Below, piece after piece: positions 30,691-33,179 of a stretch of DNA of 64,000 bases. The notes beneath the pieces were generated by a model. The model searched no databases. It saw nothing but the letters and a program-made list of their open reading frames with translations, and had not been told where the DNA came from. The position numbers were made by a program, and so were the translations under genes. Where the stretch lies: contig CAWBMP010000004.1 in NCBI GenBank assembly GCA_963790025.1, positions 480,001-544,000 of the forward strand, read 5' to 3'. Source of the DNA: Nitrospirota bacterium (lineage in GTDB: Bacteria > Nitrospirota > Thermodesulfovibrionia > Thermodesulfovibrionales > Dissulfurispiraceae). Within the stretch, counting starts at the first letter, position 1. Every line of letters starts with the position of its first letter.

Positions 30691-31191
30691 ATGAAAAGAA
30701 CCGTAAAGGAAACCTCAGTAGTGATGGCTCAAGTTATGCTGCCGCAGGATGCAAATCCGGCCGGTAATGTGCATGGTGGCGTGATAATGAAGCTGATTGA
30801 TACAGCAGCAGCTGTGGTATCTTGTCGTCACGCTCGATCAAACACCGTCACCGCTTCTATAGATATGATGGCCTTCCATAACGCTGTATTCGTCGGTGAT
30901 CTGCTTTGGCTTAAGGCATGCGTTAATATGGTTGGCAAGACCTCGATGGAGATTGGTGTCAGGGTGGAGGCGGAAAACTATATTACTGGCGAGATCAGGC
31001 ATACATCGTCGGCATATCTAACCTTTGCTGCTCTTGGTCCTGATGGAAAACCTACGCAAGTGCCCGAGCTGATACTAGACACAGATGACGATAGAAGAAG
31101 GAATCAAGAGGCGATCATGCGGAGGAAGACAAGGCAAGAACTTCGCAGGAAAGAAGAACAATGTAAACGGGATGGTATTTGCCCGATCTAG
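30691..31191 (+). CDS. Acyl-CoA thioesterase (YciA-like hotdog fold)
   Basis: DANPAGNVHGG, VTASID, GKTSMEIGV. Confidence 0.92.
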   Translation: MKRTVKETSVVMAQVMLPQDANPAGNVHGGVIMKLIDTAAAVVSCRHARSNTVTASIDMMAFHNAVFVGDLLWLKACVNMVGKTSMEIGVRVEAENYITGEIRHTSSAYLTFAALGPDGKPTQVPELILDTDDDRRRNQEAIMRRKTRQELRRKEEQCKRDGICPI

Positions 31192-31250
31192 GTCCTATAG
31201 TGCCCGAAGAATACGAAAGATTGCTGGGGTCAGGCTTGCGTTCAGTGCAT

Positions 31251-31325
31251 TTAGTGCTTCCGATTGCCACGGACTATTACATGATAAAATGCTCCGGGAT
31301 ATTCTATGCGTGGCGCCCTTGCCAT
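31251..31325 (-). pseudogene. N-terminal 24-aa remnant of a REP-associated tyrosine transposase (RAYT, IS200-like HUH)
   Basis: MARAPRIEYPGAFYHVIVRGNRKH* matches the MARxxRIxxPGxxYHVxxRGN start of RAYT/Y1 transposases. Confidence 0.8.
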
Positions 31326-31401
31326 GATGCCAAAATGTAGCACACTTAAATGCACGTATGCAAGCCTGAACATCCCGCTGGAATTTTCAATATATTTTTT
31401 C

Positions 31402-32601
31402 TTATTTAGATAAGATGTACCCTCTGTTCTCCTTCAGCATCTTGAAAATAACACGGCAAAGATGACGACCAAGCGCACGTAGTGCCTGGTTATGTTTCTT
31501 GCCTTCAGCTCTTTTTTTCTCATAATATTGTTGAGACTGCGGAACTTGTTTTCGGTGCCGATCTACGGCAACCATCATTGCGGCCTTAGCCCGAGTATTA
31601 ACCTGCGTTGGTGGTTTTGATCCTTTTTGCTTGCCTGAACTATTGTCAAGATTCGCCATCCCAATATACAGAGCCAGACTTGCTTCGCTGCCAAAGCGCT
31701 CGATAGTTCCAATCTCTCCGGCGAGTTCAGATGTACAAATGGAACCGAATCCTGGAATGGTTGCGAGCGTTTGCGCAATATCCGAGCCGTGTGCAACACC
31801 CTCCATCTTTGCTTCAAGTGATTTTATCTTGGCATGGAGTTCCATCACGCGGATTGCATCTTCCTGGATCATTTCACCGACCCACTCGACGTCGTGACTA
31901 AACTGTGCTGTTTTCTGCCATTCAACAATAACAGAGGCATATTTCTTACCAATGCCCGGGATCTTGCGGATAGTTGTTTCCCGCATGCGTGCAAGCGTGC
32001 GAAGGTCATCCGTGCTGGTCAGAAATCCAAGAAACCACATATTGTCGGCCTCACCGGTAATCTCCAGAAGTCCCGGACATACAGCGTGAAGATCGGCCTG
32101 TAGGTTGTTTACTACCCGTACTCGCTCATCGACCAAACGACGCCGGCGCCGTGATAGCCGCTTTAGAATGTCGTTGTCCCGCGGCGTTTTGCGTACCTCC
32201 TGCAGCACATCCTTGGCTATCGGCAGATGATCTCGAAGCTGAAAAAGCTCCAGTCCTTTCCTTGCGTCGATTGCATCGGTCTTCGCGGCACCGGGGAATA
32301 TCTCCTTGAATCGAGCAAGCTTGAGATTGTTGATATTGAAGAGGCGATAATTGCGGGCTCGAACGAGCGTGTCCAGCGGACGTGCGTAGCCGTTGAAGCC
32401 CTCCATTGCTACGGCAACGGGACAACTAAACCTTTGCTCCTGCTTCTCGATGCGACAGAAGAATTGCCGGAACCCTTCAGGTTCATGCACGATTGAGAAT
32501 TCATCGAGGACTTCACCGCTGGATAGGCCGATTGCAACGTTGTGACTGCGGCAGCCAATATCGACGCTTACACGCAGTTCGAGGGGATCATCTTTTTTCA
32601 T
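31402..32601 (-). CDS. IS110 family DEDD recombinase/transposase
   Basis: VDIG, MEG, KTDAIDA (D-E-D-D), IPGFG, AGEIG..ERF, DNSSGK catalytic-Ser region, K..ALRALGR. Confidence 0.95.
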   Translation of the reverse strand: MKKDDPLELRVSVDIGCRSHNVAIGLSSGEVLDEFSIVHEPEGFRQFFCRIEKQEQRFSCPVAVAMEGFNGYARPLDTLVRARNYRLFNINNLKLARFKEIFPGAAKTDAIDARKGLELFQLRDHLPIAKDVLQEVRKTPRDNDILKRLSRRRRRLVDERVRVVNNLQADLHAVCPGLLEITGEADNMWFLGFLTSTDDLRTLARMRETTIRKIPGIGKKYASVIVEWQKTAQFSHDVEWVGEMIQEDAIRVMELHAKIKSLEAKMEGVAHGSDIAQTLATIPGFGSICTSELAGEIGTIERFGSEASLALYIGMANLDNSSGKQKGSKPPTQVNTRAKAAMMVAVDRHRKQVPQSQQYYEKKRAEGKKHNQALRALGRHLCRVIFKMLKENRGYILSK

Positions 32602-32619
32602 GTAGTCTCCTTTGCAGAC

Positions 32620-32820
32620 AAGATTATCATCCTCAGGTCTCGTCTACTTACAGAGCCACATTTGGCACCATCCCGGTCGACCCTTTTGAGGATGATGCAG
32701 ATGACGGAGGCGGCATTTCAGACTCAAGTGAGCCTGAATGAACAGGCCACTGACCCCACAAGCCACACCCCCGTTAAGCATATCTTACATGAATAAAGCT
32801 GCCATAGTCATCTGCATAAA
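32620..32820 (-). ncRNA. Predicted IS110 bridge RNA (5' target-binding loop, 3' donor-binding loop)
   Basis: Stems 32626-32635/32687-32696, 32695-32705/32807-32817 and 32732-32736/32743-32747; loop segments match the reconstructed target and donor junctions. Confidence 0.8.
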
Positions 32821-32900
32821 TCCTATGGTAGACCCCATTGTTTCCGTTTAAACCTATATCTCCCCCTTGTCACTTGCGTTAACAGCCACAAACTTGACTA

Positions 32901-33179
32901 TTACTCTGCTTCGTCGAGTCCCTTATTTAAAGCGCCTTCTATAAGCGTTATATGCCGCCCGACATTTTCAGCGAGCACCGCAATTTCTTTAAAATTGCGG
33001 GGGCGTTCGTTCTCCGGGATCGCTTCAAGTGCAAGCGCGAGCAGGTGCACATTGTGATAAAGATCCTCCAGACGCCTCCGTACTGGTCCCTCACGATCCT
33101 GAAACTTCTCTATCCAATTTGCAGCTCTTTCGATCTCTGCCTCCAATTCTTCATATGTTTTTTTCTTAGCCTCCGCCAT
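32901..33179 (-). CDS. Hypothetical helical protein
   Basis: 92-aa ORF with GAGGAG RBS. Confidence 0.65.
   Translation of the reverse strand: MAEAKKKTYEELEAEIERAANWIEKFQDREGPVRRRLEDLYHNVHLLALALEAIPENERPRNFKEIAVLAENVGRHITLIEGALNKGLDEAE

Follow-up and report, generated by a model that had tools for sequence, protein, structure and literature searches.

The 64,000-nucleotide stretch of Nitrospirota DNA analysed here (the window) very probably carries an intact, recently mobile bridge recombinase of the IS110 group, which belongs to a deep, uncharacterised clade and whose guide RNA appears to be tuned to the GGGGWSAS terminal inverted repeats of TIRYT elements. We observe the boundaries of this insertion sequence, its genomic copies and their sites, and the structure and covariation of its left end (Table 1).

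The host genome (3.45 Mb in 5 contigs) holds six copies, which fix the ends of the element at 32832 and 31368, where the initial annotation had placed them. These copies vary at three places, comprising two synonymous changes and one 1-nt deletion that breaks the reading frame in two of the six; the other four frames, including that of the window copy, are intact. The copies at C4:1511277-1512740 and C5:250342-251805 carry an identical 1-nt frameshift near codon 214, which may mean that a broken copy was moved in trans or was copied. Across 40 related genomes, one full copy (90% identical) and one fragment were found, as is expected of a recently mobile element. A search of a plasmid collection at E 1e-20 gave no match, and Rfam (E up to 1) gave 0 matches between 30500 and 33800. 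On the flanks lie genes for an acyl-CoA thioesterase (30691-31191), a DUF116 protein and an exonuclease, and a 92-aa ORF upstream of the site (32901-33179, minus strand) has no Pfam match.

The claim that the element encodes an intact IS110 recombinase was borne out, as the frame is unbroken, the product matches Pfam PF01548 and PF02371, and NF033542 scores above its cutoff. An N-terminal DEDD RuvC-like domain is followed by a C-terminal Tnp domain with the catalytic serine, and D14, E67, D109, D112 and S322 show no variation in an alignment of 15 orthologs. The structure model (pLDDT 86.9) finds its best fold matches in ISCro4 and IS621 at 14-16% identity; the sequence comparison gives an E of about 0.003. 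The left end measures 231 bp and the right end 34 bp, and a long, RNA-bearing left end with a short right end is what distinguishes the IS110 group from the IS1111 group (PMC11208160).

Table 1. Features of the insertion sequence and of the repeat that it interrupts (window positions; guide counts are Watson-Crick matches between guide and site, compared with a shuffled null).
Feature	Positions	Strand	Basis or remark
IS110-group insertion sequence, both TC core copies included	31368..32832	-	1,465 bp; six copies, common ends, 99.86-100% identical
Bridge recombinase gene, 399 aa	31402..32601	-	PF01548 + PF02371, NF033542, alignment, fold match
Left core TC	32831..32832	-	copies, relatives
Right core TC	31368..31369	-	copies, relatives
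Target-binding lobe, predicted bridge RNA	32704..32774	-	fold, alignment
Donor-binding lobe, predicted bridge RNA	32626..32696	-	fold, alignment
5' leader strand, can pair with inter-lobe linker 32697-32705	32807..32815	-	overlaps -35-like hexamer 32806-32811
Left target guide, 9 nt, ends at core	32752..32760	-	226/308 vs 204; 44 elements; 0/20,000 shuffles
Right target guide, 7 nt; U reads G/A at target position 12	32718..32724	-	119/175 vs 84; 35 elements; 0/20,000 shuffles
Left donor guide: 7 matches, position-7 mismatch, U against first core base	32667..32675	-	
Split right donor guide: 32647-32643 + 32652-32651 around 3-nt bulge	32643..32652	-	proximal 138/138 vs 128, 46 elements, 0/20,000 shuffles; distal 89/92 vs 84, 2/20,000 shuffles
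Left-donor arm, right end: 7 guide-read nt + unread position 7	31370..31377	-	253/259 vs 235 for left donor guide; 37 elements; 0/20,000 shuffles
Right-donor arm; also putative -10 box of circle-junction promoter	32825..32830	-	covariation, junction reconstruction
Putative target-loop handshake bases, first = A	32716..32717	-	A in 46/46
Putative donor-loop handshake bases, first = C	32641..32642	-	C in 46/46; would pair target G7 post-exchange
Putative -35 box of circle-junction promoter	31385..31390	-	17-bp spacer after end joining
Probable internal -10 box	32782..32787	-	6-7 nt upstream of target-loop stem
Left part (GGGG) of interrupted TIRYT terminal inverted repeat	32833..32836	-	genomic copies
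Right part of interrupted TIRYT terminal inverted repeat	31347..31367	-	genomic copies
24-codon TIRYT (Y1) transposase remnant	31254..31325	-	87.5% identical to residues 1-24 of 306-aa gene
Partner terminal inverted repeat of mini element; doubles as empty target site	31225..31253	+	

Homology searches with the recombinase at E up to 1e-20 returned 3,124 proteins, one of which, from Geotalea daltonii, is 76% identical. We fetched 69 genomic and 80 metagenomic loci, and by their record titles the genomic loci span Nitrospirota, delta-, beta- and gammaproteobacteria, Acidobacteriota, Verrucomicrobiia and others. The 92 loci whose left end was complete and of standard length were dereplicated at 88% to 46, the window element included, and these were aligned. 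The relatives are not independent of one another, but the nearest-relative control given below was passed.

The left end of the element is predicted to encode a bridge RNA with a target loop followed by a donor loop, a layout already proposed in the initial annotation. The motifs named there are found on the minus strand at 32758-32750, 32724-32718, 32675-32669 and 32647-32643, the 10-bp stem of the donor lobe (32696-32687/32635-32626) is present, and the left end folds far more stably than shuffled sequences (z -4.5, 0/200). The stems of both lobes are kept by compensatory change in the 46 non-redundant relatives: two target-lobe and three donor-lobe helices, five in all, are paired in 96.1% of alignment cells, and 20 of the 31 base pairs are altered on both sides, a count reached in 0 of 500 shuffles. 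In slid-alignment controls pairing drops to 38-51%, a comparison that favours the structure because the structure was derived from the same alignment with one helix removed. A helix proposed by RNAalifold that joins both target guides was dropped from the counted structure. The leader strand and the inter-lobe linker also covary (319 of 414 pairs, compared with 278 after permutation; 0/2000), and a conserved RNA motif, GUGGCU, precedes both the left target guide and the right donor guide. What that first reading of the left end had overlooked are the putative handshake bases and the promoters described below.

Covariation with the sites that they read was found for all four guides, whose observed scores were reached in 0 of 20,000 shuffles, and two of the guides were redrawn. 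The left target guide had been given as UGGGGUCAG, but the final AG of this segment is not guide (42/70 matches, compared with 42.5 when shuffled), and the true guide is the 9-mer at 32760-32752; the A after the core in this segment belongs to the linker before the inner stem. For the right donor guide, 32647-32643 was correctly assigned but the distal half at 32652-32651 had been missed. Elements that lack the needed flank were excluded from each guide test, and L086 was excluded since the pattern required T at donor position 7. Matching is not uniform along the guides, with positions 1 and 2 of the left target poorly matched (9/44 and 21/44) and the left donor guide matching at positions 0-6, mismatching at 7, matching at 8 and mismatching at 9.

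Predicted guide pairings also supplied six of the top nine column pairs in a blind scan of 34 elements (7,056 column tests); the other three, which are non-guide or cross pairs, probably reflect shared descent. In the nearest-relative control, the right target was matched better by its own guide than by the guide of the nearest differing relative in 23 cases and worse in 5 (7 ties, p 9e-4), and the left target in 19 cases and 7 (18 ties, p 0.03). Individual relatives illustrate such joint changes. The right guide and its site are altered together in L094, L113, L118 and L105, as are the donor guide and the donor in L078, L077 and L111. Moreover, the element in L117 has been retargeted to a different site, with which its guides agree at 14 of 14 positions. 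By eye only, this site has the look of a tRNA-Arg 3' half; a search with ARAGORN gave no tRNA among 8 loci and 56 reconstructed empty sites, and Rfam gave none in L117.

A search that did not impose the core recovered the proposed dinucleotide TC at all 90 right ends and at 86 of 88 left ends, rather than the CT, GT, AT or TT (NT) of the IS621-type subgroup. The C of this core is kept at every right end (90/90) and every left end (88/88), and the right guides both terminate in GA (45/46 and 46/46). The bases that directly follow resemble the handshake bases of IS621, which pair after strand exchange directly beyond the 2-nt core (PMC11208158). In the window, the A of the target loop would pair with donor T7 and the C of the donor loop with target G7, in both cases only after exchange, a fit that extends to most relatives. 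A G stands at target position 7 in 45 of 46 elements, and both putative handshake bases are invariant among the 46, so there is no covariation to read. Donor position 7, which the guide leaves unmatched, is T, A or G among the relatives; at 16 of the 90 right ends, all from one clade with elements of about 1,600 bp, it is A while the A of the RNA is unchanged, and the target-loop handshake pair is thus lost. On the protein side, an EG[YF]NG motif that includes N70 is found in 119 of 120 close homologs. From the alignment to ISCro4 and the residue number of the IS621 glutamate, we take N70 to occupy the core-reading position of IS621, where it might contribute to core preference.

An alternative reading that we consider improbable keeps the rule of IS621 in a shifted register. 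IS621 requires T at the second core position, which is read by the backbone of G63, and accepts NT cores only (PMC11208158); the IS621 design code gives a warning on any non-NT core. If the T of TC were the T at position 9 that this rule demands, with a stagger of 1 nt, the C would be merely a conserved guide-read base, and 'TC core' would be a label for microhomology that implies no new enzyme preference. In such a register, the matches of the left donor guide would cover positions 1-7 exactly, which is the IS621 pattern, and GU would be what the two left guides read at positions 8-9. However, it sits poorly with the constancy of the C and of the GA at the ends of the right guides, and with putative handshake bases that directly follow TC as they follow the 2-nt core of IS621. 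The shifted register keeps low odds on account of the match pattern of the left donor guide, given that the left donor guide of IS621 also stops at 8 (PMC11208158). The reading that we prefer is a TC core.

All six copies, at six distinct sites, interrupt RGGG-TC-AGRCT, and none lies at an unrelated motif. The right half of the target is AGGCT in five copies and AGACT in one, both of which can be read by the U of the guide. The empty target that had been reconstructed from the window, TGGGGTCAGGCT, is present without interruption at 12 exact genome sites. Its identification as a REP sequence, however, did not survive: the target is one of two terminal inverted repeats that bracket a Y1 gene, and not a REP, which would be a short palindrome with a GTAG/CGTC-type tag. 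The repeat instead belongs to a TIRYT element (TnpA-REP subclass 2.1; consensus GGGGWSAS). Elements of the TIRYT/TIRtron type combine a Y1 transposase, a DnaA-like C-terminal helix-turn-helix and GGGGWSAS inverted repeats (PMC3733652), and TIRYT corresponds to TnpA-REP subclass 2.1.2, with subclass 2.1 described as lacking REPs (10.1101/279083).

The parent TIRYT gene has three full copies in the genome (306 aa, 96-100% identical) with the same flanking repeats. The protein carries Y1_Tnp and a weak Bac_DnaA_C match below the cutoff (E 6e-4), so that the Y1 transposase gene, the GGGGWSAS inverted repeats and, by a weak match, the C-terminal helix-turn-helix of TIRYT/TIRtron elements are all found. 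When the IS110 element is removed in silico from the window, an inverted-repeat arm is recreated that faces the partner at 31225-31253, with the 24-codon remnant between them. The TIRYT copy in the window is thus an internal-deletion derivative of roughly 145 bp. In the genome as a whole, four of the six right flanks match the TIRYT repeat family with at most 3 mismatches; one of the others is a diverged look-alike, and the other ends an element of roughly 90 bp that has its own inverted partner.

The genome has 19 empty RGGG-TC-AGRCT sites, and as 15 of them fall in the same TIRYT repeat family, the guide alone nearly explains site choice. It appears quite improbable that targeting depends on the structure of the TIRYT end or on a protein present there, with the RNA merely confirming the site. 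All six insertions do lie in repeat ends or repeat-like ends, and ISPpu10 uses an extra structural determinant, a stem-loop (10.64898/2026.03.19.712850), yet the guide match by itself selects TIRYT repeats and the guide-changed relatives L117 and L094 occupy unrelated sites. Among the relatives the tie to TIRYT elements is looser: 11 of 48 distinct sites show a TIRYT-like gene end or an inverted partner repeat (7 with a TIRYT-like gene end within 400 bp, 6 with an exact inverted partner), whereas direct-orientation partner repeats were found at 0 of the 48. These 48 are the sites with at least 1 kb of downstream sequence, and those that lacked a left flank were taken to have GGGG there. Because just 11 of 48 sites are linked to TIRYT in this way, specialisation of the whole clade on these elements rests largely on the consensus motif.

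Several features of the TIRYT repeats were noted along the way. Just beyond the GGGG, the TIRYT ends carry a conserved, asymmetric stretch of 9-10 bp (e.g. 32837-32845 and 31216-31224 in the window), which in gene orientation contains CAAT outside both the 5' and the 3' repeat; these outer base pairs may represent the true TIRYT ends or a target motif of the HUH type. At C4:1209012-1211480, an element with a 436-aa transposase-like protein splits a TIRYT gene. One IS110 copy (L153, C4:206764-208228) has a left flank like a TIRYT 5' end and a right flank like a TIRYT 3' end, which suggests that two sites or copies were rearranged with each other or that the join comes from the assembly. At occupied sites L016, L021, L081, L101 and L029, tandem duplications of 13-18 nt end exactly at the target GGGGTC, and a repeat of at least 9 nt is present at 6 of 86 left junctions, compared with 0 of 213 control positions. 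Such duplications also occur at the empty repeats L025 and L031, and because empty repeats carry them too they could stem from either TIRYT activity or past visits by the IS110 element.

That the left-end matches arise by chance or from some DNA-level feature, with no guide RNA involved, is barely credible, for although the guides are short and G-rich and the RNA is predicted from DNA, the stems change in a compensatory manner that includes G-U pairs, the covariation is strand-specific and follows the order of a bridge RNA, and the promoters are placed accordingly.

Two promoters are predicted to drive synthesis of this RNA. In 36 of 37 reconstructed junctions, joining the ends of the element brings a TTGAAA-type box to a distance of 17 bp from a TACCAT-type box, 17 being the best spacer, and the predicted start of this junction promoter lies directly before the leader. 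A second, internal promoter is marked by TAnnnT 5-9 nt upstream of the target-lobe stem in 41 of 46 elements (5-8 in shuffles, with a maximum of 17), and of the 23 elements that also have an NTGACN box, 19 show it at a distance of 17 bp from this motif. Among held-out elements the internal TAnnnT is present in 33 of 64, the misses being mostly from one redundant clade in which the TA is kept and the last T is lost; among elements whose leader is long or unrecognised, where the unit is preceded by about 100 bp of additional DNA, it is present in 15 of 17. A generic sigma-70 scan of 32500-33000 reported no promoter, with the internal site scoring 8/12, under the threshold. We think it reasonably likely that the internal promoter yields a shorter RNA from the integrated element, and the predicted folds of the long RNA and the short RNA each have two lobes. 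This promoter is a feature of the element and not the first of its kind, because native promoters are known for ISPpu9 and ISPpu10. In one subclade (L031, L082, L105, L108 and L109), about 100 bp of extra leader separates the junction promoter from the internal promoter unit. This extra leader contains a 9-mer, TTATCCACA, that resembles a DnaA box.

With transcription, the circular form, the cut position and the chemistry modelled on IS621, a transposition cycle can be proposed. The integrated copy would be expressed at a low level until its ends join at TC to form a circle, in which the joined ends would create a strong -35/17/-10 promoter from which both the recombinase gene and the left-end RNA are transcribed. 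The first lobe of the RNA would then pair with both strands of a G-rich-TC-AGRCT target, the second lobe with both strands of the joined ends, and the DEDD/serine enzyme would cleave 5' of the TC core. Handshake bases would favour the exchanged strands, resulting in insertion into a TIRYT end without duplication past the core. TIRYT GGGGWSAS repeats would provide a multi-copy landing site in many phyla. Whether elements of this family leave by a cut-out or a copy-out route is disputed (10.1101/2025.10.25.684509; 10.64898/2026.08.31.748434), and the six copies fit either. The contigs of 4 DNA sequencing runs gave no joints, a result that has no bearing on the circular form.

A more comprehensive interpretation can be offered tentatively, with the odds somewhat against all of its parts holding together. 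The clade would be a widespread, undescribed group of TC-core enzymes, this preference possibly arising through EG[YF]NG; it would parasitise TIRYT repeats in several phyla, with the right guide tracking local variants; it would retarget naturally, once to a tRNA-like site; and it would use both a long, leader-clamped RNA from the junction and a short RNA from the internal promoter. If this were true, the clade would give access to TC/GA sites as a ready-made orthogonal tool.

The recombinase is a good candidate for a new programmable enzyme, with a TC core where the enzymes now in use as tools have CT. The characterised bridge recombinases IS621 and ISCro4 require an NT core and are 88% identical to each other (10.1101/2025.05.14.653916), and a natural TC-core enzyme with about 15% identity, a decoded 7-nt right target guide and reprogrammed natural relatives would widen the range of addressable sequence and might be orthogonal. 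The system also makes testable which protein determinant sets core preference and how bridge RNA might be supplied from the integrated element ahead of the circle. In biological terms, it would be a case of an RNA guide that follows the termini of a second mobile element, itself poorly understood. When 72 orthologs were screened in human cells, 18 gave a detectable junction and 1 passed in a luciferase assay (10.1101/2025.05.14.653916), and bridge RNAs have been mined in bulk, with 32,190 loci and 86 models (10.64898/2026.10.21.760802).

In Supplementary Table 1 of PMC11208160, the clade appears within unnamed clusters that have no ISfinder element (row 386 and probably row 549). Searches of the supplements, of which the available files are a part, found no entry with the end and RNA motifs of the element. 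The literature and supplements as available do not describe the TC core, the clade or TIRYT targeting, nor did we find a paper that ties IS110 insertion to TIRYT repeats; larger mined sets may contain the clade. Some IS621-like elements in supplements 4 and 5 of PMC11208160 lie at sites starting AGGGGTCAGACCCC, and a second IS110 lineage may thus use TIR-type repeats.

Comparison with known systems gives good support to the view that this is an IS110-group element with the mode of action of IS621, though without the NT core. Features predicted or found here that are shared with IS621 and ISCro4 (IS622) include an RNA in the long left end with the target loop before the donor loop, a 9-nt left target guide with the core, a 7-nt right target guide, a left donor guide missing the second core base, a split right donor guide, putative handshake bases, a junction promoter, DEDD plus Ser residues and the same fold (PMC11208160, PMC11208158, 10.1101/2025.05.14.653916). 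In contrast to both, the protein has 399 aa and is 14-16% identical in the fold match, the conserved RNA motif is GUGGCU, and the leader is predicted to pair with the inter-lobe linker, with no 5' hairpin formed. Compared with IS621, the core is TC rather than NT only, the left donor guide lies one base further out and leaves position 7 unread, and an internal promoter is probable, whereas linear IS621 relies on read-through (PMC13626964).

Natural reprogramming and the targeting of mobile elements are already known in the IS110 family (PMC11187229). For example, IS4321 and IS5075 of the IS1111 group insert into Tn21 terminal repeats (PMC13626964) and ISEc21 into codons of an IS3-family transposase (PMC11187229), whereas the target here is a TIRYT repeat and, unlike in the IS1111 group, the RNA lies in the left end. 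ISPpu9 and ISPpu10 likewise belong to the IS110 group and target repeats. Their linear forms carry native promoters, to which ISPpu10 adds a junction promoter, and ISPpu9 recombines at a dinucleotide written AG (PMC12288879). Their targets are REPs or stem-loops, and a TC core is not described in the available part of that source (PMC12288879). Finally, the parent of the interrupted element agrees with TIRYT/TIRtron elements in that both have a Y1 transposase, a DnaA-like helix-turn-helix (here by the weak match) and GGGGWSAS repeats.
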